Below are positions 37,041-55,996 of a DNA stretch of 64,000 nt, piece by piece. Under the pieces are notes generated by a model. The model worked only from the letters and a program-made list of their open reading frames with translations. It made no database searches and was not told where the DNA came from. Each line of letters starts with the position of its first letter. Within the stretch, counting starts at the first letter, position 1. The stretch is from contig JAGXSC010000008.1 of NCBI GenBank assembly GCA_018334075.1, positions 3,342 to 67,341 on the forward strand, written 5' to 3'. Source of the DNA: Actinomycetota bacterium (GTDB lineage: Bacteria > Actinomycetota > Coriobacteriia > Anaerosomatales > UBA912). Both the position numbers and the translations under genes were made by a program.

Positions 37041-37059
37041 GAGAACAGGAGTGTTACAG

Positions 37060-38550: not shown

Positions 38551-39416
38551 CCTCATCGGCGTATAAGCTCCGCGGGCTTTTACAGATAGTCAAGTTCGAG
38601 CACTCGGTTTTTGCGCTGCCATATGCCTATGTAGGTGCCCTTTACGGAGTCGCCTCAGGGCTACCCCGGTTGGTGGATATCGTTTGGATTACGGTTGTGA
38701 TGATCTCGGCGCGTGCTTTTGCATTTCTGATCAACCGCATCGCGGACAAGGAGATAGACGCCAGAAATCCAAGGACCGCATCCCGTGCGATTCCCGCCGG
38801 AGTGATCAAGGTCAAAGAGGCACTGTTTTTTGCTGTGGCCATATTGGTGTTGTATCTTGTTGGGGTTTGGCAGCTCGATCCCGTCGCTCGATATCTATGG
38901 CCGATACCGCTCGTTGCGTTCATCGTATACCCCTACACCAAGCGCTTTACCCCGTTTTGCCACTACTGGCTGGGGATGTGTCTGGGGCTAGCCCCGGTCG
39001 GCGGCTGGGTAGCTGTAGGCGGCTCTATCCTGGATCCAGCGCCGTGGATTCTCGGCGTGGCAGTTATGCTTTGGACTGCAGGATTTGACATCATATACGC
39101 GACGCAGGATGTGGAGTGCGACGTTCGGGACAAGATCCACTCAATGCCTGCGGACTATGGAGTTTCTGCGGCATTGCTGCAAACCCGCATAGTTCATGCG
39201 CTAACGGTCGCGCTGCTGATCTTTGCCGGGTATCTGCTTCAAGCTGGTATCGCATGGTTTGTGGCTGTGGCACTGGCGGCGGTGCTGTTATTCTATGAGA
39301 ACAGCATTGTTTCGCCCAAAGATCTATCGCGCGTAAATGCCGCTTTCTTCCTTGTAAACGGCTGTATAGCGATAATCATCGGCAGTGGCGCTTTTATCGA
39401 CAGAGTTTTCGGATAG
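38547..39416 (+). CDS. ubiA: UbiA family aromatic prenyltransferase
   Basis: NRIADKEIDARNPRT (first Asp-rich motif) and YATQDVECD (second motif) in a 9-TM protein. GTG overlaps the ubiD stop. Confidence 0.85.
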   Translation: MTSSAYKLRGLLQIVKFEHSVFALPYAYVGALYGVASGLPRLVDIVWITVVMISARAFAFLINRIADKEIDARNPRTASRAIPAGVIKVKEALFFAVAILVLYLVGVWQLDPVARYLWPIPLVAFIVYPYTKRFTPFCHYWLGMCLGLAPVGGWVAVGGSILDPAPWILGVAVMLWTAGFDIIYATQDVECDVRDKIHSMPADYGVSAALLQTRIVHALTVALLIFAGYLLQAGIAWFVAVALAAVLLFYENSIVSPKDLSRVNAAFFLVNGCIAIIIGSGAFIDRVFG

Positions 39417-39423
39417 GAGAGCT

Positions 39424-40023
39424 ATGGCTCGTTACACGGTCATCATAACGGGTGCTTCGGGAAGCGTTTATGGGCTCCGTTTGATCGAGCAGCTGCTTGT
39501 GCGCGAGCATGAGGTGGTGATCTCGTATACGAAGACCGGGCGCGATGTATGTTCTTTCGAAACCGGGTTTGATCTTGGTAGTGAGGATATAACCAAGGCT
39601 CTTCTGCGATTCTTCGAGATTACCTCAGAGAATGCCAAGCTGCGCGTCGTTGAGCCTGACCGCATGTTCGACTCGATCGCTAGCGGATCACATCGGGTTG
39701 ACGCCACGGTAGTTGCTCCGGCAAGTATGGGATTTGTTGCACGGGTTGCAGGGGGGCTAGCCAACGATCTTCCCTCCAGAGCCGCGGATGTTGCGCTCAA
39801 GGAGCGTTGGCGCCTGGTGCTGGTGCCTCGGGAGACGCCCCTTTCCTTGGTTCACCTGCGCAATTTGACTGCATGCGCCGAGGCTGGTGCGGTCGTGCTT
39901 CCGGCTATGCCGGCATTTTATCAACAACCGCAAACGCTCGATGACTCAGTGAACTTTGTTGTAGGTAAGGTTCTGGACACACTGGGGGTTGAGCATCAGC
40001 TGTTTCCCCGATGGGGGACGTGA
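39424..40023 (+). CDS. ubiX: Flavin prenyltransferase UbiX
   Basis: VIITGASGSVYGLRLIE, VAPASMGF, RERWRLVLVPRETPLS. Confidence 0.9.
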   Translation: MARYTVIITGASGSVYGLRLIEQLLVREHEVVISYTKTGRDVCSFETGFDLGSEDITKALLRFFEITSENAKLRVVEPDRMFDSIASGSHRVDATVVAPASMGFVARVAGGLANDLPSRAADVALKERWRLVLVPRETPLSLVHLRNLTACAEAGAVVLPAMPAFYQQPQTLDDSVNFVVGKVLDTLGVEHQLFPRWGT

Positions 40024-40032
40024 AGACGGGGG

Positions 40033-41241
40033 CTATCGCCTGCGCAATCGCTTTTGCCTGATCCTTCTTAGCGTCGCCAGCCCGGGGATTCTCGGTCTTG
40101 GGACGTACTCCGAGATTGCAGTCAGGTAGTGCGCCTCCAGCTTTTCAGCCTGCCTGGCTATGGAGTAGTCGGCAATCTTCTCGACGGCTTTTTTCGAGTA
40201 CTCCTTCAATATCGAATCGTCGAGGAAGATCCTGTCGATCGCAGCGGCCATCGATTCGGGCCTTGGGGCCGTGATGAGTCCGGCTACTTCATGGGAGACG
40301 AAGTCGCAAGTTGCCGGATCGCGCACCGCAATTACTGGCAGACCCGCTGCCATCGCCTCACCTATGACCAGCCCTTGTGTCTCCGTTGTTGAAGAGAATA
40401 CGAAGGCGTCTGCCAAGTGATAGGCCGCAACCGACTCATCGCCTTTGAGGTATCCGGCAAAGGTGACTTTGGATTCGATGTCGAGCTCTCGGGCAAGCGA
40501 TTCCAGCTCGCCGCGATATGGGCCGTCACCGCAGATCAACAGGCGAATCGCTTCTGTATTGCAGTGCCATAATGCTCGCAATAACAGTTCGATGTTCTTT
40601 TCTCGGCCGAGTCGTCCCATAAACATCACTACTCGCTCGCCGGGTTTTATCGAGAGCCTCTGTTGTAGCGTCGTGATCGATGACGGGTTCGCTTTCGCGT
40701 ACTTGTCTACGTCTACCCCTGTGGGTAGCACCTCGATCGGCCGCTTGACTCCCCAGTCATATAGATATCCAGCGACCTTGCTCGAGGGAGCGATGATCGA
40801 GTCGCAGGCTTCACAGAATTCCCGGGAAAGCCTCTCGGCAAGCTTTCGGGTCAGGCGCGTGTCCCAGACGTAGTGGACGTACTCCGGGTAGAGGGTGTGG
40901 TATGTGTGTACATAAGGGATGCGCTGTCGTCGTGCCAGGTTCAATCCAAACAGGCCGATGCTGAACGGATCATGGGAGTGGATGATGTCGAAGCGTCCCT
41001 TGTCGAGCATCCGAAGTACTTCGATTGAGAGCGGGAATGCGACACGCATCTCTTTTTGGAACAAAAAGGGCATCGATGGGAATCGGATGGTAACATCGCC
41101 GTCGTCGTGGTGGTCGGGATCGGGAGCGAAGACGTAAACTTCGTGACCTCGCTCCTCTAGTGCGTTTTTGAAAAGACGAATAGACGTCACCACGCCATTG
41201 ATCTGTGGGGTGTAGGTATCGGTAAAAAAGCCTATTCGCAC
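40033..41241 (-). CDS. Glycosyltransferase family 4 (GT-B, group 1)
   Basis: MRIGFFTDTYTPQINGV N-terminus and the C-terminal E-x7-E region (SSTTETQGLVIGEAMAAGLPV). Confidence 0.85.
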   Translation of the reverse strand: MRIGFFTDTYTPQINGVVTSIRLFKNALEERGHEVYVFAPDPDHHDDGDVTIRFPSMPFLFQKEMRVAFPLSIEVLRMLDKGRFDIIHSHDPFSIGLFGLNLARRQRIPYVHTYHTLYPEYVHYVWDTRLTRKLAERLSREFCEACDSIIAPSSKVAGYLYDWGVKRPIEVLPTGVDVDKYAKANPSSITTLQQRLSIKPGERVVMFMGRLGREKNIELLLRALWHCNTEAIRLLICGDGPYRGELESLARELDIESKVTFAGYLKGDESVAAYHLADAFVFSSTTETQGLVIGEAMAAGLPVIAVRDPATCDFVSHEVAGLITAPRPESMAAAIDRIFLDDSILKEYSKKAVEKIADYSIARQAEKLEAHYLTAISEYVPRPRIPGLATLRRIRQKRLRRR

Positions 41242-41433
41242 TGCTGGTCAGTTACCTTTCACGACTTAGTAAAGCCCGGGAAGACTCCTGTAATCTGGCG
41301 GTTGACGCTTACGAGTTTATCGCTGCTTGACTTTTTGGGCAAAAGGATACGATACTACGGACTACAGGGTCGGTTTTTTACCGTAGCAGTTGCACTCTAT
41401 TTGTAGCCACAATAGTACCAGGAGGTATTAGCG

Positions 41434-41589
41434 ATGACCCTCGCACAAGCGCGTAAGCGCTATCCTTTGGTTCCCACCGAGATCATCCAGTGGGCGCTCG
41501 ATAACATTCCCAATCCTGCCGATGCCGAGCGCGGTCTTTTTCGGCTGGAGCAGGCCAAGCGCCTGGAGATCAAGTACGCCCGGATGTAA
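41434..41589 (+). CDS. Possible 51-aa protein (below the ORF-track cutoff)
   Basis: ATG 41434 preceded by CCAGGAGGT at ideal spacing. Translation MTLAQARKRYPLVPTEIIQWALDNIPNPADAERGLFRLEQAKRLEIKYARM. Followed by a small hairpin CAGCG-AGGG-CGCTG-TTT. Confidence 0.35.
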   Translation: MTLAQARKRYPLVPTEIIQWALDNIPNPADAERGLFRLEQAKRLEIKYARM

Positions 41590-41620
41590 CAGCGAGGGCG
41601 CTGTTTCGGCACAAGGTGAG

Positions 41621-41695
41621 TGGAGGCGACGCCCGGATTCGAACCGGGGATGAGGGCTTTGCAGGCCCCTGCCTTAGCCACTTGGCCACGTCGCC
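41621..41695 (-). tRNA. tRNA-Cys (anticodon GCA), CCA encoded
   Basis: Reverse complement GGCGACGTGGCCAAGTGGCTAAGGCAGGGGCCTGCAAAGCCCTCATCCCCGGTTCGAATCCGGGCGTCGCCTCCA folds as a cloverleaf with loop CTGCAAA. Confidence 0.9.
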
Positions 41696-41781
41696 ACAGT
41701 ACTACGATAGATCTATCTTTCAATCGGTCCCAAGCCCTTGCTTGCCTGTCGCATCTGCTTGACCGACTCGTGTAGGATGAG

Positions 41782-41857
41782 TGGAGCGGACGACGGGATT
41801 CGAACCCGCGACCCCAACCTTGGCAAGGTTGTGCTCTACCAACTGAGCCACGTCCGC
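41782..41857 (-). tRNA. tRNA-Gly (anticodon GCC), CCA encoded
   Basis: Reverse complement GCGGACGTGGCTCAGTTGGTAGAGCACAACCTTGCCAAGGTTGGGGTCGCGGGTTCGAATCCCGTCGTCCGCTCCA. Anticodon stem CAACC/GGTTG, loop TTGCCAA. Confidence 0.92.
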
Positions 41858-41993
41858 GCGAAGGGTAGTGTAGCAAGGGGTCTTGACCTGCGCAAGATGC
41901 TAGGTGTCTATGAGAATCTTCTTTCTCGGCTTTGCTTTTTTTCAGAGATTGGTACAATACCGTTCGTTGCAACTATTATGGCGATCACAAAAC

Positions 41994-42068
41994 GGGCGCT
42001 TAGCTCAGGGGGAGAGCGCTTCCTTGACACGGAAGAGGTCAGAGGTTCAAATCCTCTAGCGCCCACCA
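41994..42068 (+). tRNA. tRNA-Val (anticodon GAC), CCA encoded
   Basis: GGGCGCTTAGCTCAGGGGGAGAGCGCTTCCTTGACACGGAAGAGGTCAGAGGTTCAAATCCTCTAGCGCCCACCA. Anticodon stem CTTCC/GGAAG, loop TTGACAC. Confidence 0.92.
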
Positions 42069-42109
42069 TCAGTACTTCATGTCAGTATGACTTATTTGAA
42101 TGGACCGGC

Positions 42110-42673
42110 ATGTTCAAGGCGCTGACTTTGAGCCAAGGAAAGCGGGCTGGAAGAACATCACGTGTCCGTAGATTTCTCGGGCACGTGGTCTTATATCTGC
42201 TTATCTGGTTGGTAATCACCGGCGGCGATCTCTCTTCGCTCTTCTTCGGCGTGCCGTTTTCGATTATGGCTGCAGTTGTCTCAACTTCAATGTCGCGCCA
42301 GGACGCTTTACGGTTGAGCCCTTTGGGTATCGCGAGGTTCTTACTGTATTTCATGAAAAACTCACTTGTTGGAGGGGTAGACGTCGCGCTGCGGGCGATA
42401 AGGCCGTCAATGCCCCTCAATCCGGGATTTATAAACTTTGAATTCCGACTGCCATGTGATTTTTCGCGCGCCCTGCTATGCGACACCGTTAGCCTGTTGC
42501 CAGGCACATTGAGCGCGGGGTTCGTTCGTGACTCTGTGTATCTTCACGTTCTTGACGTGTCGCAGCCCGTGGAGAAGGAGACGCGCAAGATCGAGCAACT
42601 TATCGCCAATGCGCTCTGTATTGACCTCCCGGAAGCACCGGGCGATCATTTGACGGTTAGTGAAGATAGATGA
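42110..42673 (+). CDS. mrpE: Mrp/Mnh-type complex subunit E (MbhA-like)
   Basis: Two TM helices, then the ...VSLLPGTLSAG... motif (LTPGT-like) typical of MnhE. The longer ORF-track N-terminus runs through tRNA genes and was trimmed. Confidence 0.75.
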   Translation: MFKALTLSQGKRAGRTSRVRRFLGHVVLYLLIWLVITGGDLSSLFFGVPFSIMAAVVSTSMSRQDALRLSPLGIARFLLYFMKNSLVGGVDVALRAIRPSMPLNPGFINFEFRLPCDFSRALLCDTVSLLPGTLSAGFVRDSVYLHVLDVSQPVEKETRKIEQLIANALCIDLPEAPGDHLTVSEDR

Positions 42674-42963
42674 TTCCAGATGTGATATTCATGGGTTTTG
42701 CAACAGCAGTGCTGCTTACTATGTTGCTTGGATTTCTGCGAATCGAAATGGGTCCCACCCCTACCGATCGCATGCTTGCAGCCCAACTCTTCGGCACATC
42801 CGGAGTAGCCGTACTTCTCCTTCTCGCCGAGGCTCATTCACTGCCTGCCCTCCGGGATGCCGCTCTCGTTTTGGCTCTGCTGGCCGCTATCACAGGAATT
42901 GCGTTTGTGAAGCGTGCTTATCAGATTGATAGCAAAACCGCCGAGGAGGTTCAGGCCAAATGA
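42670..42963 (+). CDS. mrpF: Mrp/Mnh-type complex subunit F
   Basis: 97-aa, 3-TM protein with GPTPTDRMLAAQL, as in MrpF/PhaF. ATGA overlap with mrpE. Confidence 0.8.
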   Translation: MIPDVIFMGFATAVLLTMLLGFLRIEMGPTPTDRMLAAQLFGTSGVAVLLLLAEAHSLPALRDAALVLALLAAITGIAFVKRAYQIDSKTAEEVQAK

Positions 42964-43262
42964 ATTTCTTCGGCTACCTGACGATCGGTTTACTTGTTGT
43001 CGGTACTCTATTTTTTATAGCTGGCACCGTCGGACTACTTCGATTTCCAGACGTATATTCGCGTCTGCATGCTTTGACCAAGGCCGATAATCTCGGACTC
43101 GGGCTTGTGGCAATCGCGCTCGCAATCAACTCTAGCTCTGCGATTGTGTCGATCAGGCTGCTGATCACCTGGCTTCTTGTGCTCCTGGCCACCGCGACGA
43201 CGAGTCACCTGATCGCACGCGCGGCACGCGAAAACAATATTGAGCCCTGGAGACGACCGTGA
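42960..43262 (+). CDS. mrpG: Mrp/Mnh-type complex subunit G
   Basis: GTVGLLRFPDVYSRLHALTKADNLG is the MnhG signature. ATGA overlap with mrpF. Confidence 0.85.
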   Translation: MNFFGYLTIGLLVVGTLFFIAGTVGLLRFPDVYSRLHALTKADNLGLGLVAIALAINSSSAIVSIRLLITWLLVLLATATTSHLIARAARENNIEPWRRP

Positions 43263-43564
43263 GCACTTGGGAGTTTGCATTCGATGCATGGCTCGTAGTG
43301 GTGCTTATCTGGCTGGCTATTCGCACTCTGAGTGAAGCCAGGCTATTCAAGTCGGTAGTGCTGTTCATAGCGCTAGGCCTATTTGTGGCATTCGCCTGGG
43401 TCAGGCTGGATGCGCCTGATGTGGCCTTAACTGAAGCTGCGCTCGGGGCCGGAATAACCGGTGCACTGCTTCTCGACACCGTTGGTCACCTTCGTGGCCG
43501 AAAGGTTCCTTACTCCTCCGCCGAGAGAGATTCTCAAGGGAAGGCGAGTGCGAGCGATGTCTGA
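43259..43564 (+). CDS. MbhD/DUF4040 protein (equivalent to the MrpA C-terminal segment)
   Basis: RLDAPDVALTEAALGAGITG is the DUF4040 signature. GTGA overlap with mrpG. Confidence 0.8.
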   Translation: MSTWEFAFDAWLVVVLIWLAIRTLSEARLFKSVVLFIALGLFVAFAWVRLDAPDVALTEAALGAGITGALLLDTVGHLRGRKVPYSSAERDSQGKASASDV

Positions 43565-44282
43565 TATCACGGGAAACACTACGCGATGGCAGCGTCTGGC
43601 GATAATCTTTATCTTGGCGATAGTTTTTGTGATTATCGCTCGTGGTGTGGTGGCGATCCCAGAAGATATTCTCGGCGTGGCTCCGCACATAACATCCAAT
43701 TTGACCGTTAGCGGAGTTGCCAACCCGGTTACCGCGGTGCTCCTGAACTTTCGCGGGTACGATACCTTGCTGGAGATAGGAGTCCTGATGTTGGCGACCA
43801 TCGGGGTGCTCTCCCTGGCCAAGAACCTTTCACTTGCGCAGATGAGGTTTAGTCCGCCTGCAGATCCGGTTCTCGCATTGATGACGCGCATATCAGTTCC
43901 GCTGCTTGTGCTCATCTCAGGCTATCTGCTGTGGGCGGGGGAGAAGGCGCCCGGAGGCGCTTTTCAGGCCGGTAGCGTATTGGGTGCCGCGGGGGTTCTG
44001 CTTGCCTTATCGGGTCATACCCGCCCAGCTTGGCTGAATGTGTCGATGCTGAGGGCATCGATAGCGGTGGGATTTGTCGTGTTCCTCGCTGCAGCTGTTG
44101 TGCCGATGTTCCTCGGCAAAAATTTGCTCGAATATCCTGTTGCGCTGGCCAAAACGCTAATCATCGTCATAGAAACGTGGCTCACCCTTTCCATCGGTTT
44201 TATGTTGGTGAGCATGTTCATCGCATCTGCCGCGCCGATCAGCCGTAACTTGGAGGAGCCCGTTGATGCCGAGTCAGACTGA
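43557..44282 (+). CDS. mrpB: MnhB/MrpB-domain subunit (MbhE/F-like)
   Basis: VANPVTAVLLNFRGYDTLLEIGVL is the MnhB signature. ATG 43557 overlaps the preceding stop. Confidence 0.8.
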   Translation: MSDITGNTTRWQRLAIIFILAIVFVIIARGVVAIPEDILGVAPHITSNLTVSGVANPVTAVLLNFRGYDTLLEIGVLMLATIGVLSLAKNLSLAQMRFSPPADPVLALMTRISVPLLVLISGYLLWAGEKAPGGAFQAGSVLGAAGVLLALSGHTRPAWLNVSMLRASIAVGFVVFLAAAVVPMFLGKNLLEYPVALAKTLIIVIETWLTLSIGFMLVSMFIASAAPISRNLEEPVDAESD

Positions 44283-44580
44283 TCTTTTTTCACTTGCAGG
44301 GGCGGCGATATTCGTCATCGGGCTCTATGGCCTTCTTGTCCGTCCCCACTTTCTGCACAAGGTACTTGCACTCAACATCATGGCCGTGGCGATTTTTCTT
44401 CTTCTCGGCGCGATTGCCAGGCGCGTACCCGATCAGGCGCCCGATGCACTCCCTCATGCAATGGTGCTCACAGGAATCGTGGTTTCTGTTGCTGCGACTG
44501 CCTACTCGCTCGCTCTGATAAAGCGCATCTTTACCGATACGGGAGCTGTCTCATTCGAAGATGAGGTCTCCGATGAGTGA
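44266..44580 (+). CDS. mrpC: MrpC / NuoK-like subunit
   Basis: ~100-aa, 3-TM protein (IFVIGLYGLLVR...LALNIM...) resembling NuoK/MnhC. GGAGGAG SD before ATG 44266. Confidence 0.8.
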   Translation: MPSQTDLFSLAGAAIFVIGLYGLLVRPHFLHKVLALNIMAVAIFLLLGAIARRVPDQAPDALPHAMVLTGIVVSVAATAYSLALIKRIFTDTGAVSFEDEVSDE

Positions 44581-46054
44581 GGCGCTGGCTCAGCATCTTC
44601 CAGTTATGGCGATCGGAGTGCTGCTTTTTGCTGCGGCGGCTGCATTTCTGACGAGCTTCAGGGTCGCCCGCTGGATCGCGCTTGTAACCGCGGGCACACA
44701 GCCTCTACTTGCCGGCTGGCTGGCGGCATCGGTTATGCAGAGTGGTCCGGTGGTCTACTCTATCGGCGGCTGGGGGGCGCCATTAGGGATCGATCTTTAC
44801 GTTGATGGCCTGTCGGCCCTGATGATTTTACTGACCGCGATAGTGGGTTTTGTGGTTACGCTTTACTCGGCAGGCTACTTTGAGCCAAAGGAGAAATACC
44901 GGCTCTTCTGGCCTTTGTGGCTTTTCCTTTGGGGCTCGCTCGTTGCCCTGTTTGCTTCTAACGACATATTTAACCTCTATGTGTGCCTGGAGCTGCTCAG
45001 CATCTCTGCAGTAGCGCTGGTGGCTTTGGCGGGTACGCGCACAGCCTTGTTCGCGTCGATGAGATACCTGCTGTCAGCGTTGGCCGGCTCGCTGATATAT
45101 CTGTTCGGTGTGGCGATGGTGTACGGCTCCACTGGCGTTCTTAGCATCGACCTTTTATCCGAGTACAGTGGTGTCGACCCCGCGACCCAGGTAGGGCTTG
45201 CTTTGATGGTCGTGGGTCTTTTGATAAAGACGGCTCTCTTTCCAATGCATTTCTGGCTGCCGCCTGCGCACGCGAATGCTGTTGCGCCGGTCAGCGCGGT
45301 ACTTTCAGCTCTCGTTATTAAGGGCTCGTTCTACATCATTTTGCGTATCGTTTTCACCTTGCCCACCGAGGATCTGATTCCCGCACTGCCCACACTGCTG
45401 GGTGCCCTCGGAGTCGCTGCTATCGTTTGGGGCTCGGTAATGGCGTTTATGCAGAAGCGGTTGAAGATGATGGTGGCCTATTCGACGGTTGCGCAGATCG
45501 GGTATCTGTTTCTCATGTTCCCGCTGGCCTTTTCCGCCCTGGATGTCGAGGGCTCGATTCTTGCGATAAACGCCGGGGTGTTCCATGCGCTGTCGCATGG
45601 TTTGGCCAAGGGAGCCATGTTTCTCTCGGCGGGTGCGGTAGTTGCCTCCATTGGCCACGACAACATCGAGCGGCTTTCCGGACTCTCCCGGGTGGCGCCC
45701 GTCCAAGCGCTTACTTTCGGGCTGGCAGGCGTCTCGATGCTTGGATTACCGCCGAGCGGAGGTTTCGTCTCGAAATGGCTTTATGTTTCCGCTGCGCTCG
45801 ATACAGGGCAGTGGTGGTGGGCGGCGGTTGTTATGGTCGGAGGGCTGATGGCCGCAGCCTATGTGTTTAAGGCGGTTGGAGTGTTTATGCGCGAGCCGCA
45901 GGGGATCAAAGTGGAAACTACGCTCCCGCTGTCTACTTCGTGGGCCCCGCTTTCACTGGCGCTTATCTCACTGTTTCTGGGTGTATTCGGTCAGCCCGCA
46001 CTCGATCTTCTTGCGCCCGCCGCACAGGCGCTATCCGAAGGAATCCTCTCATGA
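44573..46054 (+). CDS. mrpD: MrpD / NuoM-N-like antiporter-like subunit (proton-conducting membrane transporter family)
   Basis: TM5 Glu (YVCLELLS), TM7 Lys (LLIKTALFPMHFWLPPAH), and the AYSTVAQIGY and FHALSHGLAKGAMFL motifs. The start could instead be 44561. Confidence 0.85.
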   Translation: MSEALAQHLPVMAIGVLLFAAAAAFLTSFRVARWIALVTAGTQPLLAGWLAASVMQSGPVVYSIGGWGAPLGIDLYVDGLSALMILLTAIVGFVVTLYSAGYFEPKEKYRLFWPLWLFLWGSLVALFASNDIFNLYVCLELLSISAVALVALAGTRTALFASMRYLLSALAGSLIYLFGVAMVYGSTGVLSIDLLSEYSGVDPATQVGLALMVVGLLIKTALFPMHFWLPPAHANAVAPVSAVLSALVIKGSFYIILRIVFTLPTEDLIPALPTLLGALGVAAIVWGSVMAFMQKRLKMMVAYSTVAQIGYLFLMFPLAFSALDVEGSILAINAGVFHALSHGLAKGAMFLSAGAVVASIGHDNIERLSGLSRVAPVQALTFGLAGVSMLGLPPSGGFVSKWLYVSAALDTGQWWWAAVVMVGGLMAAAYVFKAVGVFMREPQGIKVETTLPLSTSWAPLSLALISLFLGVFGQPALDLLAPAAQALSEGILS

Positions 46055-49000
46055 GCGCTGTGCAGATTGCGATCTTATCCGCTGTAGGTATTCCGTGGAT
46101 TGCCGCTGCAGGCCTGCTCGCGCTTGGGGAAAACAGAAACAGGGCTCGCCTTGTCACTGGCGTTGTAGCCGCGATTGCAACGACAGCCGCAGTGCTATAC
46201 CTGGGTTTCATCGTGGCGGGCCCGGCCGATCCGCCCTCAATCTATCTGCCGCTGCTGGGTATCGGGTTTGGGCTAATGGCTGACGGCCTGGGAGTTTTGT
46301 TCGCGCTTTTGGCAGCGTCGCTTTGGCTGGTAACTACGATCTATGCGACAGGCTATATGGCGAGCGCAAAGGACAAGGCTCGCTTTTTTGGATTTTTCGC
46401 AATATGCGTCGGCTCGGCAATCGGAATCGCGCTGTCATCCAATCTGCTGACGCTGTTCATATTCTACGAGGCCTTGACTTTGGCCACCTATCCACTGGTG
46501 GCTCACAAGGGAACCGAAGCCGCAATTCGTGGCGGCCGGACGTATCTCAAGTACGCCCTTACCGGCGGAGCAGCGCTTGCGCTTGGCACTATCTGGCTCT
46601 ACTCGATGGGGGCTGGGTCATTTATCCCGGGAGGATCAATCCCGGCGGAGCTCTTTGACTCACACGGCGGTCAGCTGACCGTCATCTTTGCATTGTTGAT
46701 TGCGGGATTTGGTGTGAAAGCAGCGCTATTTCCCGCACATGGGTGGTTGCCTGCGGCTATGGTCGCTCCCGCTCCGGTCAGCTCGCTGTTGCATGCTGTT
46801 GCCGTAGTCAAGGCGGGCGTTTTTGGCATTGCACGCGTTGTCCTTGACCTCTTCGGTCCAGCCGGCGCAGCATATCTCGGGGTTCTTGCGCCACTTGCCG
46901 GCCTAGCTGCCTTCACAATTGTTTTTGCTTCTATAAAGGCGCTCTTGCAAGACGACATCAAGAAGCGGCTCGCTTACTCGACTATCGGTCAGCTCTCTTA
47001 TATCGTCCTTGGGATTGCTATTGGTACTCCGATTGCGATCGCTGCAGCTTGCGCTCACCTTGCTCACCATGCGTTGATGAAGATCACGATGTTTTTCACA
47101 GCAGGAGCGCTTGAGAAGGAGCTGAAGATAAGTCGAGTAAGCCAGATGGACGGTATTGGCAAACGGATGCCACTGACCATGCTCGCGTTCTCCGTCGCCG
47201 CGCTAGGGATCATTGGTGTGCCCCCGGCTGCGGGGTTTGTCTCCAAGTGGGGGCTAGGTCTCGGCGGTCTTGAAGCGAATCAGTTGTGGCCTCTTGGGGT
47301 TCTGGCTCTAAGTAGCGTCTTGAACGCCGTTTACCTGATGCCCATGATCGGGCGCGCCTGGTTCGGTCAGCTAGATCCGAAACTGGCCGAAACCTGGCGC
47401 ACGCCGAGCAGAAACTCTAGCGAGGCTGACCGCAGGCTCGTATTGCCGCTGGTGTTCACCTCCGCACTTGGCTTACTGGCCGGTCCTGCAGCAGTGTTCG
47501 CGTGGTCGCCCGCCTCATGGTCTGCCGCCATAGCGGGCGCCGACCTTTCGCTTGCTATACCTTGGCGCCTCGCTGCATTAGCACTTGATGATTACGGCCT
47601 ACTCTTTCTTTGGGTTACGGTTGTGGCTTGGAGCGCTTCTTTCATCGCCCTATGGAGATCAGGGCTATCCGAGAAGCCTCGTTTCTACACCTTTTTCCTG
47701 CTTTCTGCGTTGGGCTCCGTTGGGCTCGCTTTCGCTTTGGATCCGGCAATATTTTATGCGTGCTTCTCGGTCATGGCGCTCTCTGCCTATGGCTTGATAG
47801 TTCACAGCGGAACCGCCGAGGCCAAAAAAGCGGGCAGAATCTATCTTGCCTTCACGGTTGTTGCCGAGGCGCTTCTTCTTGCTGGACTGCTGATCGGGTC
47901 TTACGGCGCTGCAGGGTTTTCGATTGTGCTTGCCGAGTCGCAGTGGCGTGATTTGGGGATCGGTCTTTTGATTGCCGCATTCGGCATCAAGATCGGCGCG
48001 CTTGGCGTTCATGGGTGGATGCCCTTTGCTTATCACGCTGTGCCAAGAGGTGTCGGCGCGGCAATAGCAGGAGTGGTCTCCTCGGCGGGTATTCTTGGAA
48101 TGATCAGATTTTTGCCCGGAGGTGTCGCTGATTTTGAAGCGTGGGGTATATTTCTGATCGGCATCGGCCTTGTGACAGCGTTTTATGCGGCGCTCGTCGG
48201 TTGTCTTCAGCACGAATCCAGGCACGTACTCGCGTATTCAAGCATGAGTCAATTTGGCATCATGGTTATCGGGATCGGAGCGGGGATGGCTTCAGCCGAA
48301 ATGTGGCCTGTCGCCGCCTCCGCGGTTGCCATTTATATGCTTCACCATGGGTTCGCCAAGGCCGCCTTGTTCTCTGGCGATGATCATCGTACTGCCTTCG
48401 GGTCAGGCGTGTTGATTTTGGGCGCGCTGGGTGTCGCCGGTGTGGCTCTAGCCGGGTTGCCCTTTACAAGTGGGGCCGTAGCCAAAACAGCTCTGAAAGA
48501 AGCGCTATATCTTGCCCCCCTGGCCAACGCTCTCGAAATCCTTCTCCCATTGACCGCGGTTGGCACTACCTTGTTGATGTCGAGATTTCTCGTGCTTGTT
48601 GCAACAGGCTCAGGTGCGGAGAAAATCAGCAAGGGTCAAAAGCCGGGATCCGCCGCATCACTTGCAATACTGATTGTGTTTACAGCGGGATTTGCGTGGC
48701 TAAGTAGTTATCAGCCGATATCTTATGCCGCCGATAAGTCACTGTCGTTGGCCACCTCTGTCGCGCTGATTTGGCCCGTCGCACTTGGTGCTGTGATCGC
48801 CCTAGCGTTTTGGATCGCGCGCGGCACTAGAGCCGTCAGGTCGCTTCCTGGACTCCTTCCACCCGGCGACCTCATGTCACCGATTATGAACTCCTTCGAC
48901 CGGCTCTGGCTCGCTTACCAGGGGTCATTGATAGAGCCGCGTCCCGAGAAAGTCCGGACGCCCTTCTCGGCAGAGCGCTTATATATTGCGCTTGGACTGG

Positions 49001-49080
49001 AAAAACGACTGATTACATGGCGGATCGCAGCTGTTGGGGTTGCGCTTCTGTTGGCAGTTATACTGTTGATGACGCTGTGA
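46051..49080 (+). CDS. Tandem fusion of two antiporter-like (MrpD/NuoL-M-N family) modules, 1009 aa
   Basis: Module 1 (~aa 1-490) has FYEALTLA, GFGVKAALFPAHGWLP, SSLLHAVAVVKAG, AYSTIGQLSY and HHALMKITMFF. Module 2 (~aa 530-870) has GIKIGALGVHGWMP, AYSSMSQFG and HHGFAKAALF but lacks the TM5 Glu and the TM8 His/Lys. ATGA overlap with mrpD. Confidence 0.8.
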   Translation: MSAVQIAILSAVGIPWIAAAGLLALGENRNRARLVTGVVAAIATTAAVLYLGFIVAGPADPPSIYLPLLGIGFGLMADGLGVLFALLAASLWLVTTIYATGYMASAKDKARFFGFFAICVGSAIGIALSSNLLTLFIFYEALTLATYPLVAHKGTEAAIRGGRTYLKYALTGGAALALGTIWLYSMGAGSFIPGGSIPAELFDSHGGQLTVIFALLIAGFGVKAALFPAHGWLPAAMVAPAPVSSLLHAVAVVKAGVFGIARVVLDLFGPAGAAYLGVLAPLAGLAAFTIVFASIKALLQDDIKKRLAYSTIGQLSYIVLGIAIGTPIAIAAACAHLAHHALMKITMFFTAGALEKELKISRVSQMDGIGKRMPLTMLAFSVAALGIIGVPPAAGFVSKWGLGLGGLEANQLWPLGVLALSSVLNAVYLMPMIGRAWFGQLDPKLAETWRTPSRNSSEADRRLVLPLVFTSALGLLAGPAAVFAWSPASWSAAIAGADLSLAIPWRLAALALDDYGLLFLWVTVVAWSASFIALWRSGLSEKPRFYTFFLLSALGSVGLAFALDPAIFYACFSVMALSAYGLIVHSGTAEAKKAGRIYLAFTVVAEALLLAGLLIGSYGAAGFSIVLAESQWRDLGIGLLIAAFGIKIGALGVHGWMPFAYHAVPRGVGAAIAGVVSSAGILGMIRFLPGGVADFEAWGIFLIGIGLVTAFYAALVGCLQHESRHVLAYSSMSQFGIMVIGIGAGMASAEMWPVAASAVAIYMLHHGFAKAALFSGDDHRTAFGSGVLILGALGVAGVALAGLPFTSGAVAKTALKEALYLAPLANALEILLPLTAVGTTLLMSRFLVLVATGSGAEKISKGQKPGSAASLAILIVFTAGFAWLSSYQPISYAADKSLSLATSVALIWPVALGAVIALAFWIARGTRAVRSLPGLLPPGDLMSPIMNSFDRLWLAYQGSLIEPRPEKVRTPFSAERLYIALGLEKRLITWRIAAVGVALLLAVILLMTL

Positions 49081-49101
49081 GCATCACGAAAGGGGCGACA
49101 G

Positions 49102-49431
49102 ATGAAGGCTTCTCGGCTAGCTTTGGCAGGACTGATGGTTGTACTGTCAGTAGCGACTTTTGGCGTGCTGGCTGGCTGCGCTCCGACTGACGCAAGTCAG
49201 GACCCGCCAGCAGAGGTTCAAGAAGATGCGACCCCCGCTGCGGAGGATCCCCTCAGCCCGCAGGCGCTCGTTGAAAGCAGATGCTCGGCGTGTCATACAC
49301 TTGATCGGGTCCAAGCTGCCGAGTACGATAGGGCGGGATGGGAGCGGACTGTTGATCGCATGGTGGGCAAAGGCCTCAATCTGACGGACGAGGAGTACGC
49401 CGCTATAGTCGAGTATCTCTCGACGCGGTAA
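49102..49431 (+). CDS. Lipoprotein monoheme c-type cytochrome
   Basis: Signal peptide with lipobox VLAGC. A single CSACH haem-binding motif followed by ...W..TV.RM...(E)EY..IV.YL. AAAGGGG SD. Sits 21 nt after the fused antiporter gene. Confidence 0.7.
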   Translation: MKASRLALAGLMVVLSVATFGVLAGCAPTDASQDPPAEVQEDATPAAEDPLSPQALVESRCSACHTLDRVQAAEYDRAGWERTVDRMVGKGLNLTDEEYAAIVEYLSTR

Positions 49432-50358
49432 TCATGTCTGGCTAAACAGCTCTTCGGGCACAAGGAGTCTCGTCGCCCCGGGAAGCACTCGTGCCTCAAA
49501 TGGGGTTGTGGCAGATAGTAGCTCGCCGTCGAACTGAACCTGCAAGGCAGGCTCGGCCTCAACGATGATGTGCTTGGCGACGTATGCCTCCACTCCAGGG
49601 CTTCGATCGGCGTAATTGCCGGTGGTCAGGTCGACGATTGCGGCCCAGACAACAGGAAGCAGCTCAAGCGCGTTTTTCGTTCTCAATACAATGACGTCGA
49701 GAAGCCCATCGGTCGGATCACTGTGGTGTATAAGCGGGATATCGAATTGCAGTCGAGCCACATTGAGAACCAGCACGGCTATACCTTCAGTCCTCACGAC
49801 CTTATCGTTGTCGAGAGTCAGTGTGAACTTTGATATTGTCGGCATCAGGTTGGCAAGTGCGCCCACAAAGTATGCACTGACCCCCAAGGACTGCTTGAGA
49901 TCGTCCGCTACCTCTACTATTGAGGTGTGGAATCCCGCTCCGGCACCGACCAAAAAGCCTTCGACCCGGCGATCCAGCGAGCCGGGTGAGCCGATTCGCA
50001 CTTCTCCCATGTCTAACTCCATCGTAATATCTCCTAGGGCTATCGATGCCAGCCTTTGGGGATCTGAGGGTATTTTGAGGTTCATCGCCAGCAGGTTTGC
50101 CGTGCCTGCAGGATACGCAAGCACCGGAACGTTTGTTCCGCGCAAGGCATAGCATACGCCGGTAACTGTGCCATCGCCTCCAGCTGCGATTACTCGGTCA
50201 AACTTGTGGCCGTCGCGTACGATGTCCCTGAGCGTGGTTCCCCCATGGAAGTGGCGTAAGGTAACTTCAGCGCCCGTGTGGCCGATCGCTTTTATAGTCT
50301 CGTATATCCCGGCGCCGCTCTGACCGGACCGTGCATTGATTACGCAAAGTACCCGCAT
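49432..50358 (-). CDS. Diacylglycerol/lipid kinase family protein (YegS/BmrU-like)
   Basis: RVLCVINARSG at the N-terminus and the AAGGDGTV nucleotide-binding motif. Start placed at ATG 50358. Confidence 0.8.
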   Translation of the reverse strand: MRVLCVINARSGQSGAGIYETIKAIGHTGAEVTLRHFHGGTTLRDIVRDGHKFDRVIAAGGDGTVTGVCYALRGTNVPVLAYPAGTANLLAMNLKIPSDPQRLASIALGDITMELDMGEVRIGSPGSLDRRVEGFLVGAGAGFHTSIVEVADDLKQSLGVSAYFVGALANLMPTISKFTLTLDNDKVVRTEGIAVLVLNVARLQFDIPLIHHSDPTDGLLDVIVLRTKNALELLPVVWAAIVDLTTGNYADRSPGVEAYVAKHIIVEAEPALQVQFDGELLSATTPFEARVLPGATRLLVPEELFSQT

Positions 50359-50469
50359 TTTTGGTGTCCTGACCCTGATTAGCACGATTGCCGGAAGAAA
50401 GTCGGCGCTCAGCTGGCCTGTTTGTTTTTTGGAGCTATCGGACAGGAGCGCATTACGATAGTCTAGCTA

Positions 50470-51672
50470 ATGAAGGGAGTCTATGTGTACGTTGATGACG
50501 ATGATACGCTAAATACGCTATGTGAGAGTATCAGAAGCTCTCCGCTACTAGCTATTGACACGGAGTTTATGCGAGAGCGCACCTACTATGCGCGCCTGTG
50601 TTTGATCCAGGTGGCTACTAGTGATGTCACTGCAATTATCGACCCACTTGCGGTAAAAGACCTAAAACCTCTCGAATCCCTGTTGACGGATGAGCGAAGC
50701 CTAAAGATATTCCACGCCGGACAACAGGACCTTGAGATATTCTTTCAGCTCATGGGGGAGCCCGTGCGCCCAGTATTTGACACTCAGATCGCCGCGACTC
50801 TCGCAGGGTTTCCGCAGCAGGTTTCTTACCGCACGCTGGTGAGTGACTGTGCTGGTGTGGAGTTGGACAAGTCGGATACCTATACCGATTGGGCTCGAAG
50901 ACCTCTTTCTGCGACCCAGATCGAGTACGCGCTAAACGATGTACGCTATCTGCCCGTTATATATTCGCATCTAATCGACGAGCTTCATGCCGCCAATCGT
51001 ATGGAATGGCTGAAGCCGGATCTCGAGCGGCTTGTCGATCCGGCAACTTTCACGCTGAACCCTGACACAACTTTTCTCAAAACAAAGAAAACATCATCGC
51101 TGAATCGCCGTCAGCTTGGGGTATTGCAGAAAATCGCTGCCTGGCGGGAGTATGAAGCACAAAAAAGGAATATCCCAAGACGATGGGTGCTTACCGACGA
51201 GTCGCTGGTGGAGATTGCTCGCCGAGCACCTTCGGATATAGAGCAGTTGATGTCGATCCGCGGCGTTAAAGACAAGCTGCCAAAAGCCGTATATCCCCAA
51301 CTACTTACTGTAATCGCCGAGGGCTTGGCTCTGAAAGACTCCGAGTTGCCCGGTGCCTATAAGCGTCGACACCGTCCCGCTGAAGTGGACGGAGTGGTTG
51401 AGCTGATGGCGGCACTGATTCGTGTGCGTGCCAAGGAGCATAATGTTGCAGCAACTTCTCTGGGTTCAAGAGAAGATATCGAAGCCTTGGCGGCTGGAGA
51501 TCGTGATGGAACTCCACTGTTGCAGGGCTGGAGAAGGGCTCTTGTCGGGGATGAGTTGCTGCAGCTACTTGAAGGCAAAGTATCAATCTCGGTTGCCGAC
51601 AACGTGCTCAGTATCAAAAGAGTATATGAGGATCCAGTGGGGGATGCCGAAGATGGCACACATCTTGCGTAA
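50470..51672 (+). CDS. rnd: Ribonuclease D
   Basis: DEDD exonuclease motifs (LAIDTEFMRE, FHAGQQDLE, YALNDVRYL) and an HRDC-like region (QLGVLQKIAAWRE). Confidence 0.85.
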   Translation: MKGVYVYVDDDDTLNTLCESIRSSPLLAIDTEFMRERTYYARLCLIQVATSDVTAIIDPLAVKDLKPLESLLTDERSLKIFHAGQQDLEIFFQLMGEPVRPVFDTQIAATLAGFPQQVSYRTLVSDCAGVELDKSDTYTDWARRPLSATQIEYALNDVRYLPVIYSHLIDELHAANRMEWLKPDLERLVDPATFTLNPDTTFLKTKKTSSLNRRQLGVLQKIAAWREYEAQKRNIPRRWVLTDESLVEIARRAPSDIEQLMSIRGVKDKLPKAVYPQLLTVIAEGLALKDSELPGAYKRRHRPAEVDGVVELMAALIRVRAKEHNVAATSLGSREDIEALAAGDRDGTPLLQGWRRALVGDELLQLLEGKVSISVADNVLSIKRVYEDPVGDAEDGTHLA

Positions 51673-51741
51673 TCATATTGCTTGAGCAGCATCGTTTCGG
51701 CCTATAGTTTAAGGCCTTGTAGTTTGGAAGGGGCGTTCGTC

Positions 51742-52407
51742 ATGGGTTGGTACTGGATCATATTGATTATCGGCCTGGCCCTGGGCGGCTTGACCCAGTT
51801 GTTTGTAAACAGCTCGTTCAAGAGGTTCAGCAAAGTCGCGTTGGCAACTGGACAATCCGGGGCGGAGGTTGCCCGAAGGATGCTGGATGCCGAAGGATTG
51901 CACAATGTGCGCATAGAGCGTGTCGATGGTCATCTGTCGGATCACTATGATCCGCGAACTAATGTGATCAGGCTCTCCCCAAAGGTTCATGACGGCCGGA
52001 CTGTTTCAGCGGCAGGAGTTGCTGCTCATGAGGCTGGCCATGCCGTTCAGCATGCTCGGCAGTTTGTGTTCGCCCGCATACGGTCAGCGTTGGTTCCTAC
52101 TGCCCAGCTAGGCTCCTCGCTCTCTTTTCCTCTGATAATGGCAGGGGTATTCATGAACTTCGCCGACCTTATACTTCTCGGAGTACTAGTGTTCGCTGCG
52201 GCCGTTCTGTTTCAGATCGTCACCTTGCCGGTAGAGTTCGATGCCTCGCGCCGCGCAATGCTGGCTCTTTCAACTGGAAATATGCTGCCTTCCGAGCAGA
52301 TCTCAGGCGCTCGACAGGTTCTTACCGCAGCAGCTCTGACATATGTCGCGGCGACAGCCGTTGCTGTTCTCCAGCTGATATACTTTCTCAGTCTTGCAAG
52401 GCGTTAG
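51742..52407 (+). CDS. Membrane zinc metallopeptidase (YugP-like, Zn_peptidase_2 type)
   Basis: MGWYWIILIIG N-terminus, the HEAGHAVQH zinc motif and C-terminal TM helices. Start trimmed to ATG 51742. Confidence 0.8.
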   Translation: MGWYWIILIIGLALGGLTQLFVNSSFKRFSKVALATGQSGAEVARRMLDAEGLHNVRIERVDGHLSDHYDPRTNVIRLSPKVHDGRTVSAAGVAAHEAGHAVQHARQFVFARIRSALVPTAQLGSSLSFPLIMAGVFMNFADLILLGVLVFAAAVLFQIVTLPVEFDASRRAMLALSTGNMLPSEQISGARQVLTAAALTYVAATAVAVLQLIYFLSLARR

Positions 52408-52462
52408 CCGAAAATGTCGTCAAAGTCTCTGGCCGAAAGTTTTTGGGCTCAGGCTTTAATGG

Positions 52463-53764
52463 TTGCTACCTGTCGGTAAAGTAGAGGTCGGGGGATACTT
52501 GTCCCAGCAAAATGCGGTTTCGGTGAGCGATGCGCTGCTTGCGGCCAAGCGCTCACTCGAGAGCCTTGCGTTTCGCGTCGTTGGCGAGATATCGGAGTTC
52601 AGCGACAAGCCAGGATACAAGGCCGCCTACTTCTCGCTGCGAGACGATAGCGCCTCTATGCCGTGCTTGATGTGGCGCGATGTATTTATGGCCTCAGGGG
52701 TTGAACTTAGATGCGGGATGCTTGTAATCCTCGAAGGGAATTTCTCGGCGTATGTTCCCAAAGGCCGCCTTCAGTTCATCGTTCGTTCGATAACTCCCGC
52801 AGGTGAAGGTGCGCATCGGCTACGAGTCGCAGCACTTGCACGTAAGCTTGAGTTGGAAGGACTTATGGCTCCTGGGCGTAAGCGGCCGCTCCCTTCCTAC
52901 CCGGAGCGAATCGCAGTCGTCACCTCTCCTCGCGGCAAGGCCGTGCACGATGTCATTCGCACTCTGAGCAGGCGTTATCCGCTGGCCCACATCTATATCG
53001 CCGGGGTATGCGTGGAGGGACCTGAAGCTCCAGCCGCCATTACGGCAGGGCTTATCTCGGCACAGGATTCCGGTGCGGATGTCATACTGCTTGTCAGGGG
53101 AGGCGGCAGCTATGAAGACTTGTTGCCCTTCAGTGATGAGATGGTTGTTCGCACTGTTGCTTCCTCGCGCGTCCCGGTCGTTACCGGGATCGGCCACGAG
53201 CCTGACACTTCCATAGCCGATATGGTCGCTGATAAGCGCGCTTCAACTCCGACCGCTGCTGCGGAGGCAGTGTCACCCTCTTGTGAGGAGATAGATCGTA
53301 TTTTGCGGGAGTCGCGCAATAAACTTGCAAGGGGCTTACTTCACAGGGCACGAGAGTATCAGCACCGCTACAACCTTTTGGCATCCCGCAGAATCTTCCA
53401 TGAGCCGGCTGCGATTTTTGAGTCTAACTGGCAAAACCTTGACAACCTTAATGCTCGTCTTCAAAGAGTGTTGCCCGACCGCATCAGCAGCGACTCGGCA
53501 AGCCTATCTCAGGCGAGCCAGCAACTGTTGAAGCTGGGGCCTGTCGTCAGTTTTTTGTTCGAGAGTCGTGTGACTGCGCTAGCTGGCAGGTTGGAGGATC
53601 TTTCACCGCTGGCAATCTTGCGCAGAGGTTACTCCGTTTGCTTTGGCGAAGACTCCGGACGTATCGTGCGCTCCGCTAGTGATGTCGCTCCAGGTCAGCT
53701 CGTCATGGTTCAGCTCCATGACGGCAGCCTGCACTGTTTGGTCGATCGAGTAGAAGGAGAGTGA
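52463..53764 (+). CDS. xseA: Exodeoxyribonuclease VII large subunit
   Basis: OB-fold N-terminus (VVGEISEFSDKPGYKAAYFSLRD), VVTSPRGKAVHD, RGGGSYEDL and TGIGHEPD. The exact start is uncertain; TTG 52499 is possible. Confidence 0.85.
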   Translation: MLPVGKVEVGGYLSQQNAVSVSDALLAAKRSLESLAFRVVGEISEFSDKPGYKAAYFSLRDDSASMPCLMWRDVFMASGVELRCGMLVILEGNFSAYVPKGRLQFIVRSITPAGEGAHRLRVAALARKLELEGLMAPGRKRPLPSYPERIAVVTSPRGKAVHDVIRTLSRRYPLAHIYIAGVCVEGPEAPAAITAGLISAQDSGADVILLVRGGGSYEDLLPFSDEMVVRTVASSRVPVVTGIGHEPDTSIADMVADKRASTPTAAAEAVSPSCEEIDRILRESRNKLARGLLHRAREYQHRYNLLASRRIFHEPAAIFESNWQNLDNLNARLQRVLPDRISSDSASLSQASQQLLKLGPVVSFLFESRVTALAGRLEDLSPLAILRRGYSVCFGEDSGRIVRSASDVAPGQLVMVQLHDGSLHCLVDRVEGE

Positions 53765-55931: not shown

Positions 55932-55966
55932 TGCTGGCTTGGTGCTCGTTCTACCCCATAAAAGCC

Positions 55967-55996
55967 GAAAGCCTCGACCTTCGAGTCGAGGCTTTC
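55967..55996. terminator. Strong hairpin (12-bp perfect stem) with the U-tract on the minus strand only
   Basis: GAAAGCCTCGAC-cttcga-GTCGAGGCTTTC. It is preceded on the plus strand by ATAAAAG (minus-strand reading gives hairpin + CTTTTAT). It lies 36 nt after the plus-strand stop at 55931. Confidence 0.5.

Follow-up and report, generated by a model that had tools for sequence, protein, structure and literature searches.

Group 3 Mrp systems are operons that lack a full mrpA gene and carry several mrpD genes (PMC5703873; PMC8415708). A stand-alone member of this group, the mrpEFGBB'CD cluster of Pyrococcus furiosus, has been characterised genetically, where it was found to affect pH-dependent growth and to use Na+ (PMC8415708). 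Another stand-alone example is the cluster of Microbacterium sp. TS-1, listed as mrpFGBCDDAE, and a cyanobacterial group 3 system is covered by a review (PMC5703873). Genome papers also list MrpEFGBBCDD in the Solemya velum symbiont (PMC4287430) and MrpEFGBCD1D2D3 in Verruconatronum alginivorum (PMC13274419) as Mrp antiporters.

The window analysed here is a stretch of 64,000 nucleotides from an Actinomycetota bacterium, and it carries nine co-oriented genes on the forward strand at 42110-49431, in the order MrpE, F, G, MbhD-like, MbhE+MrpB, MrpC, MrpD1, a double MrpD protein of 1009 residues (DD) and a cytochrome c. The nine same-strand genes of the initial annotation were confirmed, and its domain assignments were all upheld by Pfam profile searches with E-values far beyond chance. 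The annotated features, with the best supporting match for each, are as follows.

41994-42068, + strand: tRNA-Val(GAC), 41 nt upstream of mrpE (ARAGORN, Rfam)
42110-42673, + strand: mrpE, 187 aa, start codon uncertain (Pfam MNHE, 3.5e-27)
42670-42963, + strand: mrpF, 97 aa (Pfam MrpF_PhaF, 1.8e-10; NCBIfam subunit F models)
42960-43262, + strand: mrpG, 100 aa (Pfam PhaG_MnhG_YufB, 2.9e-26; TIGR01300, 78.4 bits, cutoff 63.1)
43259-43564, + strand: MbhD/MbsD-like subunit (Pfam MbhD, 9.5e-18)
43557-44282, + strand: MbhE and MrpB (MbhF) fusion, 241 aa (Pfam MbhE, 4.2e-06; MnhB, 1.1e-15)
44263-44580, + strand: mrpC, NuoK-like, 104-105 aa (Pfam Oxidored_q2, 3.5e-17)
44561-46054, + strand: mrpD1, encoding module D1, 497 aa (Pfam Proton_antipo_M, 4.6e-51)
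46051-47520, + strand: D2, N-terminal module of the 1009-aa fusion (Proton_antipo_M, 7.7e-76 for the whole fusion, in two stretches)
47521-49080, + strand: D3, C-terminal module of the fusion, with its tail (phmmer, alignments)
49102-49431, + strand: lipoprotein monohaem cytochrome c, 109 aa (Pfam cytochrome c families)

Most of the genes are linked by short overlaps, as had been noted before. The E/F, F/G, G/MbhD and D1/DD junctions overlap by 4 nt, the MbhD/B junction by 8 nt, and the B/C and C/D1 junctions by up to 20 nt. The exception is the DD-to-cytochrome junction, where 21 nt separate the two genes and the cytochrome gene is preceded by a ribosome-binding site, AAGGGG. Upstream of the tRNA-Val gene there is a putative promoter (TTGCTT-N17-TACAAT, about 41933-41958), so the mrp operon may be transcribed by read-through from the tRNA promoter. 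Our Rfam scan of 41200-50600 returned three tRNAs only and no riboswitch. The consensus scan for promoters and terminators gave no more sites than were found in shuffled sequence, and therefore it cannot define the transcript.

Gene content and domain identities, both read directly from the locus, agree with the description of group 3 Mrp. There is no full-length mrpA, the antiporter-like modules are several and all of the mrpD type, the MbhD- and MbhE-type pieces are separate, no redox module is present and the gene order is E-F-G-B-B-C-D rather than A to G. At the same time, the A-N-like, A-C/MbhD-E, B, C, D, E, F and G domain types that mark an Mrp (CPA3) system all occur within one co-oriented cluster. 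The eight genes at 42110-49080 probably encode a group 3 Mrp complex that works on its own as a secondary antiporter, exchanging a cation for protons at the expense of the proton-motive force (pmf), and the cytochrome is probably not a mechanistic component of it. The cluster differs from P. furiosus mrpEFGBB'CD in having three modules where that system has a single MrpD, and from the group 3 examples in that D2 and D3 are fused, which is a minority state, and in that the cluster is followed by a cytochrome c gene, in the lineage of the window only. With the group 1/2 Mrp structures (Bacillus pseudofirmus 7qru, Anoxybacillus flavithermus 6z16, Dietzia 7d3u) it shares the same seven domain types and the D-type channel residues, but it departs from them in gene order, in the split MrpA, in one extra module and in MrpC cation ligands that are not conserved.

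The number of antiporter-like modules was revised from four, the initial count, to three, as in the membrane arm of complex I (NuoL/M/N/K/J). A phmmer comparison of the 1009-aa protein against D1 with the filters off found exactly two modules (residues 41-466 and 508-813), which together with D1 make three in the operon; a hidden fourth module in this protein was rejected on the same result. A confident AlphaFold model of the fusion (pLDDT 91.7, pTM 0.91) matches the folds of NuoL, MrpD, MrpA and MbsH. Ranked by E-value, the measure on which the placement of all three modules among known ones rests, D1 is a canonical MrpD/MbhH-type module (6u8y_H 4.7e-62, 6cfw_H 4.3e-55, 7qru_D 3.3e-44).

Channel residues were observed directly in the alignments. 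D1 has the canonical set of TM5 Glu, TM7 Lys, TM8 Lys and TM12 Lys, and this set is invariant in D2, where E140, K223, H248, K254 and K399 do not vary among 87 homologues. D2 carries both His and Lys on TM8, as is typical of MrpA-N-like modules (PMC7419157). Of the canonical set, D3 retains just the Lys residues of TM7 and TM12; it has no TM5 Glu but an invariant TM6 Glu, and in the clade of the window Ser takes the place of its TM8 Lys. D3 is thus no more than a candidate proton-conducting module. D3 had been called degenerate, but its E606 (TM6), K647, H766, K770 and K812 are invariant in 87 homologues and its family comprises 783 clusters at 50% identity, and a decaying copy is rejected on both counts. 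Beyond the module, the D3 tail consists of two TM helices, amphipathic helices at 940-961 and 974-987 and a terminal TM helix at 990-1008. This resembles NuoL and MrpA, in which an anchoring helix comes after a lateral helix, although the tail is far shorter than the lateral helix of NuoL.

The E-F-G-MbhD-B-C-D1-D2-D3 order recurs across many bacterial phyla, among them Actinomycetota, Pseudomonadota, Desulfobacterota, Bacteroidota, Verrucomicrobiota, Gemmatimonadota and Bacillota, with at least 556 species genomes matched. The full order was observed in 50 of the 84 loci examined, while E is relocated to the end of the cluster in eight more. D2 and D3 are usually separate genes and are fused in 8 of 82 loci. 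Many of the source names are those of soda-lake or haloalkaliphilic organisms (Desulfonatronum, Aliidiomarina, Nesterenkonia, Thioalkalivibrio, Roseinatronobacter). Contrary to the earlier suggestion, the cluster is not undescribed, since group 3 Mrp is already defined and the same arrangement is listed in genome papers. The other part of that suggestion, a purely ion-translocating cluster, is the most plausible reading. We found neither a structure nor a transport or antiport assay of the three-module subtype in the literature searched.

For the antiporter itself we infer the direction, the ion, the stoichiometry and the subunit arrangement. D1, D2 and D3 would conduct protons, and the end of the complex made of MbhD, MbhE, MrpB, MrpC, E, F and G would couple this proton flow to the extrusion of a monovalent cation, with Na+ assumed by default. 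With a third proton module, more H+ would be moved per cation, and this would suit low-pmf, alkaline or saline habitats.

The small subunits bear on the choice of ion. The absence of a single full-length MrpA was confirmed. By NCBIfam coordinates, one part of the C-terminal region of MrpA corresponds to the MbhD-like protein and another to the N-terminus of the B protein. The MbhD-like subunit is the equivalent of the first part of this C-terminal domain, aligning with MrpA positions about 612-699 (NCBIfam coordinates), and it matches 6u8y_D at 2.2e-06 and 6cfw_D with an offset of +10. Its E59 is the equivalent of MbhD E69 and MrpA E706, and the RGxDTLxE motif is retained in the MbhE-like part of the B fusion. 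Of the residues proposed for the Na+ coupling site, the MbhD glutamate is hence kept, whereas the MrpC positions are replaced. In the window, MrpC has Ala and Phe in place of the D/H residues proposed as cation ligands in MbhG (D37, H41) and in studied MrpC (H40); the roles of these residues, like those of MbhD E69 and MrpA E706, are taken from PMC7419157. The motif N-x-x-[GSA]-x-x-x-F, with [GSA] and Phe at the ligand positions, is family-wide, and the identity of the ion is uncertain for this reason. An Mrp-type transporter with another ion or direction, namely K+/H+ or Ca2+/H+ exchange or proton export driven by Na+ influx, would accommodate the small residues and invariant Phe of MrpC, and both K+, Li+ or Ca2+ activity of Mrp homologues (PMC5703873) and reverse operation (PMC8415708) have been reported. 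Against this stand the retained E59 and RGxDTLxE motif, and the enrichment in haloalkaliphiles fits Na+/H+ exchange; we regard this alternative as unlikely.

The closest solved relatives of the E, MbhD, B fusion, C and D1 subunits belong to the MBS (6u8y) and MBH (6cfw) membrane arms, in line with the Mbh/Mbs-type order first noted. The MBS chains 6u8y_A, D, E, G and H rank best. The mrpE product matches MbsA (6u8y_A) at 1e-14, and its gene call is likewise 187 aa in one relative (L083). The MbhE and MrpB fusion matches MbsE (6u8y_E) at 6.4e-12, and MrpC, which was also aligned to 6cfw_G, has 6u8y_G as its best relative. The split is that of MBS as well, which has a separate MbsD and has MbhE and MbhF joined in MbsE, whereas the number of modules is three here, one in MBH and two in MBS. 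Subunit order and top matches would allow the cluster to act as membrane arm in a respiratory complex of the Mbx/Mbs kind with its redox module encoded elsewhere, for example by the separate and complete complex I-type nuoABCDH-I*-JKLMN operon that starts at 60197, 10.8 kb downstream. We consider this quite improbable. In contrast to MBH and MBS, neither MbhJ/K/L/N nor the connecting subunits MbhM (NuoH-like) and MbhI were found in the operon or its flanks. Unlike complex I, the cluster has no NuoA, NuoH, NuoJ or Q module. In close relatives the nuo operon encodes a full set of H, J, K, L (617 aa), M and N subunits of its own and is therefore self-sufficient, so use of its redox arm by the cluster was rejected. 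In addition, clusters of this type are found in many phyla and have no redox genes next to them. The earlier statement that no soluble redox module lies in the operon was correct for 42110-49431 and its immediate flanks, where no NuoB/C/D/I/H-like or hydrogenase gene was found.

The last gene encodes a lipoprotein cytochrome c, as proposed. The 109-aa protein has the CxxCH motif, distal Met and export signal of a class I monohaem cytochrome c, and its lipobox (LAGC) Cys, C61, C64, H65 and M87 are invariant. Two Pfam families pass their cutoffs, Dehyd-heme_bind (2.7e-07; 30.8 bits, cutoff 25.2) and Cytochrom_C (21.6 bits, cutoff 21.3), while Cytochrome_CBB3 (9.9e-06; 26.2 bits) falls just below its 27-bit cutoff. 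The gene is probably co-transcribed with the operon. Its 21-nt spacing, its good ribosome-binding site, the lack of a terminator-like site between DD and the cytochrome gene in the consensus scan (which did no better than on shuffled sequence) and its retention throughout the sampled clade make a lineage-specific functional link conceivable.

Outside one narrow lineage, the cytochrome is not kept with the cluster. The gene is confined to a clade whose members share at least 77% identity in D2-D3 (L081-L084, L088 and L089), where all six sampled relatives retain it with CxxCH, Met and lipobox intact; the entire neighbourhood is syntenic in this clade, however, so this retention carries no independent weight. 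A search of 80 genome loci with a cytochrome profile HMM found nothing (best E 0.1), and the gene is missing from 65 of the 69 loci that extend more than 700 nt beyond D3. In the sister genomes L032-L034, L047 and L053 the DAGK/RNase D/XseA and/or UbiX/A/D flanks are preserved, with the operon inverted and no cytochrome gene, and a more distant homologue (P0128) lies in an unrelated gene context. Apart from L081 and L082, which belong to the clade of the window, eight of the 80 genome loci have CxxCH-containing ORFs near D3 (L002, L008, L043, L045, L065, L066, L069 and L073). None of these eight is homologous to the cytochrome of the window and they were treated as unrelated.

The least tenable reading is a cytochrome-linked Mrp, in which the lipoprotein would dock on the periplasmic face and either drive or gate ion translocation by redox chemistry or regulate the antiporter; MrpD-like subunits do occur in the cytochrome-containing oxidase gene clusters of Ca. 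Manganitrophaceae (PMC9040806), but the link fails the co-conservation test that was set for it, and the eight membrane subunits, which have very few Cys, contain no CxxC or CxxCH and no haem, Fe-S or quinone-site motif to take electrons, so we hold it to be very improbable. The related proposal that a three-module group 3 Mrp of this uncultured actinobacterial lineage recruited the cytochrome as a periplasmic partner, with translocation redox-gated or assisted in the absence of a hydrogenase or Nuo arm, is just as doubtful. More probably, the cytochrome is a small periplasmic lipoprotein that a single narrow lineage of actinobacteria has added to its operon at the 3' end.

The locus is thus an ordinary member of a widespread and already recognised class, and its annotation should be corrected to a group 3 Mrp antiporter whose neighbouring cytochrome is not to be taken as a redox partner. 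The remaining interest lies in an uncharacterised three-module subtype that is very common and that has altered residues at the MrpC cation site. Based on the third module and the remodelled MrpC site, we suggest tentatively that the whole family could differ from the studied Mrp systems in H+-to-cation stoichiometry or ion selectivity, which is more likely than a redox-gated, cytochrome-coupled Mrp. As the subtype has one proton module more than the studied Mrp antiporters and lacks the proposed Na+ ligands of MrpC, a single biochemical and structural study of it would test the current models of Mrp coupling and stoichiometry.

Nine consecutive open reading frames were found on the + strand between positions 42110 and 49431, listed here with their Pfam matches and best solved relatives.

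Genes of the Mrp cluster
42110-42673, + strand: mrpE (MNHE, 3.5e-27; MbsA, 1e-14)
42670-42963, + strand: mrpF (MrpF_PhaF, 1.8e-10)
42960-43262, + strand: mrpG (PhaG_MnhG_YufB, 2.9e-26)
43259-43564, + strand: MbhD-like gene (MbhD, 9.5e-18; MbsD, 2.2e-06)
43557-44282, + strand: B fusion (MbhE, 4.2e-06, and MnhB, 1.1e-15; MbsE, 6.4e-12)
44263-44580, + strand: mrpC (Oxidored_q2, 3.5e-17; MbsG, 7.3e-07)
44561-46054, + strand: mrpD1, encoding module D1 (Proton_antipo_M, 4.6e-51; MbsH, 4.7e-62, MbhH, 4.3e-55, and MrpD, 3.3e-44)
46051-49080, + strand: D2-D3 fusion, 1009 aa (Proton_antipo_M, 7.7e-76, two stretches; D2 about equally close to MbsH, NdhF, MbhH and MrpA)
49102-49431, + strand: cytochrome c, 109 aa (cytochrome c families)

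Four of the junctions among the eight Mrp genes are 4-nt overlaps and the rest are other short overlaps. The cluster contains no full-length MrpA; by NCBIfam coordinates, the MrpA C-terminal domain corresponds to the MbhD-like protein plus the N-terminus of the B protein. Subunits of the archaeal complex MBS (6u8y) were consistently the best solved relatives, followed by MBH (6cfw) and bacterial Mrp, and MbsE is likewise an MbhE+MbhF fusion. At the gene level the initial annotation was correct and careful apart from one miscount, and the Mbh/Mbs-type order that it claimed is also correct.

Upstream, the - strand carries tRNA-Cys and tRNA-Gly and the + strand a divergent tRNA-Val (41621-42110), with a candidate promoter, TTGCTT-N17-TACAAT, upstream of tRNA-Val. 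Only 41 nt separate the end of tRNA-Val from mrpE, and read-through transcription starting at this tRNA may extend over the Mrp operon. Further upstream, UbiD, UbiA and UbiX-type prenyl-decarboxylase genes were observed at 37051-40023. The downstream flank, at 54369-58539, encodes a RACo-type corrinoid activase together with a 103-aa ORF that matches no Pfam family, followed by acetyl-CoA synthetase.

The cluster belongs to the known group 3 Mrp class, defined in one review by irregular gene order (PMC5703873) and in another by the lack of mrpA alongside at least one mrpD (PMC8415708), and its cytochrome gene is a lineage-specific attachment. Published clusters include the stand-alone mrpEFGBB'CD of P. 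furiosus, deletion of which changes pH-dependent growth and Na+ stimulation (PMC8415708), mrpFGBCDDAE of Microbacterium sp. TS-1 (PMC5703873), MrpEFGBBCDD in the Solemya velum symbiont genome paper (PMC4287430) and Mnh/MrpEFGBCD1D2D3 in the 2026 Verruconatronum description (PMC13274419). No transport assay or structure of the three-module bacterial subtype was found in the literature searched, the coverage of which was incomplete.

With D1 as phmmer query and all filters off, the 1009-aa protein matched twice, at residues 41-466 with 123 bits and at 508-813 with 23 bits. It thus holds two antiporter-like modules and not three, so the operon encodes three in total, one fewer than first counted. 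In an alignment of 87 homologues, E140 (TM5), K223 (TM7), H248 and K254 (TM8) and K399 (TM12) of D2 are invariant, and a His plus Lys pair on TM8, as D2 bears, is typical of MrpA-N (Steiner and Sazanov, PMC7419157). D3 lacks the TM5 Glu, having T, A or S instead, and its TM8 Lys occurs in 57 of the 87 sequences (Ser in the window); K647, H766, K770, K812 and the TM6 Glu E606 are invariant, so D3 is a conserved, specialised module rather than the degenerate one initially described. When 1.84 billion representatives were scanned in full with HMMER, 783 D3-type clusters at 50% identity were recovered at E ≤ 1e-30, the majority being stand-alone proteins 570-590 aa in length. AlphaFold models the fusion with confidence (pLDDT 91.7, pTM 0.91), and the model matches NuoL, MrpD, MrpA, NdhF and MbsH. 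Beyond the D3 core it shows two TM helices, then amphipathic helices spanning 940-961 and 974-987, and ends in a TM helix. This tail is reminiscent of the lateral helix plus anchor seen in MrpA and NuoL, although pLDDT is only ~60 in the last 40 residues.

Relatives are encoded in at least 556 genomes (one genome scanned per GTDB species), and the best 80 loci were retained as the genome loci. In tblastn with the nine window proteins, the complete order E-F-G-MbhD-B-C-...-D3 was found in 50 of 84 loci and E was relocated to the cluster end in eight; in the rest, the contig ends early or subunits are too diverged for detection. In 74 of 82 loci D2 and D3 are encoded by different reading frames, and they are fused in the other eight (the window's clade, L001-L003 and L038). 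The hosts belong to Actinomycetota, Alpha-, Beta- and Gammaproteobacteria, Desulfobacterota, Bacteroidota, Verrucomicrobiota, Gemmatimonadota, Bacillota, Spirochaetota and others, and many of the host names listed are soda-lake or haloalkaliphilic taxa.

The cytochrome gene is real and conserved: nine homologues share an unvarying lipobox Cys, C61-x-x-C64-H65 and M87, and it follows D2-D3 by 21 nt with a ribosome-binding site, AAGGGG. It adjoins D2-D3 only where the latter is at least 77% identical to that of the window (L081-L084, L088 and L089), in loci collinear throughout (DAGK, RNase D, Zn-peptidase, XseAB, HIT, RACo, ACS). In the 80 genome loci, a profile HMM from the cytochrome alignment found no member (best E 0.1), and the gene is lacking in 65 of the 69 loci with >700 nt of sequence past D3. 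It is also absent from five sister actinobacterial loci (L032-L034, L047, L053) that keep DAGK/RNase D/XseA/HIT at one flank and/or UbiX/A/D at the opposite one; between these flanks the entire Mrp operon lies inverted relative to window 37051-53764. A more distant homologue, P0128, has unrelated neighbours. The eight membrane proteins contain no CxxC or CxxCH and most lack Cys entirely. The association of the cytochrome with Mrp is thus narrow, and lack of conservation with the cluster is what the initial annotation itself had named as refuting its reading; the new cytochrome-linked complex suggested there is not supported.

The cytochrome gene abuts a convergent DAGK/YegS-like gene without a spacer (49429-49434), the 3' ends of the two overlap by 29 nt in L083 (7371-7399), and no terminator-like site was seen 3' of the cytochrome gene. 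In an Actinomycetes MAG (L045, 15350-22297), a 2315-aa ORF with 16 CxxCH motifs, unrelated to the window's cytochrome, lies ~1 kb downstream of the Mrp cluster.

A role as membrane arm for the nearby complex I-type operon was rejected, as that operon has its own membrane arm in relatives and does not depend on the Mrp cluster. It begins at 60197; nuoA, B, C, D and H fall within the window (60197-64000), and in relatives whose NuoA is identical a NuoI fusion comes next, ahead of J, K, L (617 aa), M and N. The operon has no nuoEFG. In close relatives (L087-L089, 10001-20360) the NuoI-position protein has 669-694 aa with Fer4_7/Fer4, GltD-like Fer4_20 and Pyr_redox_2 domains, a domain set that makes it a possible built-in module for NAD(P)H-type input.

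The cluster most likely functions as a pmf-driven cation/proton antiporter in which D1, D2 and D3 would form proton paths and the MbhD/MbhE/B/C/E/F/G end the cation path. MrpC, in the window and 70 loci, reads N-x-x-[GSA]-x-x-x-F across the positions of N34/D37/H41 in MBH and H40 in Bacillus-type Mrp, so that small residues and an invariant Phe occur family-wide at the equivalents of MbhG D37 and H41 (MrpC H40), which have been proposed as Na+ ligands (PMC7419157). MbhD retains its Glu as E59, equivalent to E69d and E706a. Sequence does not settle which ion is carried, because the MrpC ligand positions are changed while this Glu is kept. The third module would plausibly raise the H+-to-cation ratio, and such a higher ratio, if so, would be of use at high pH and low pmf.
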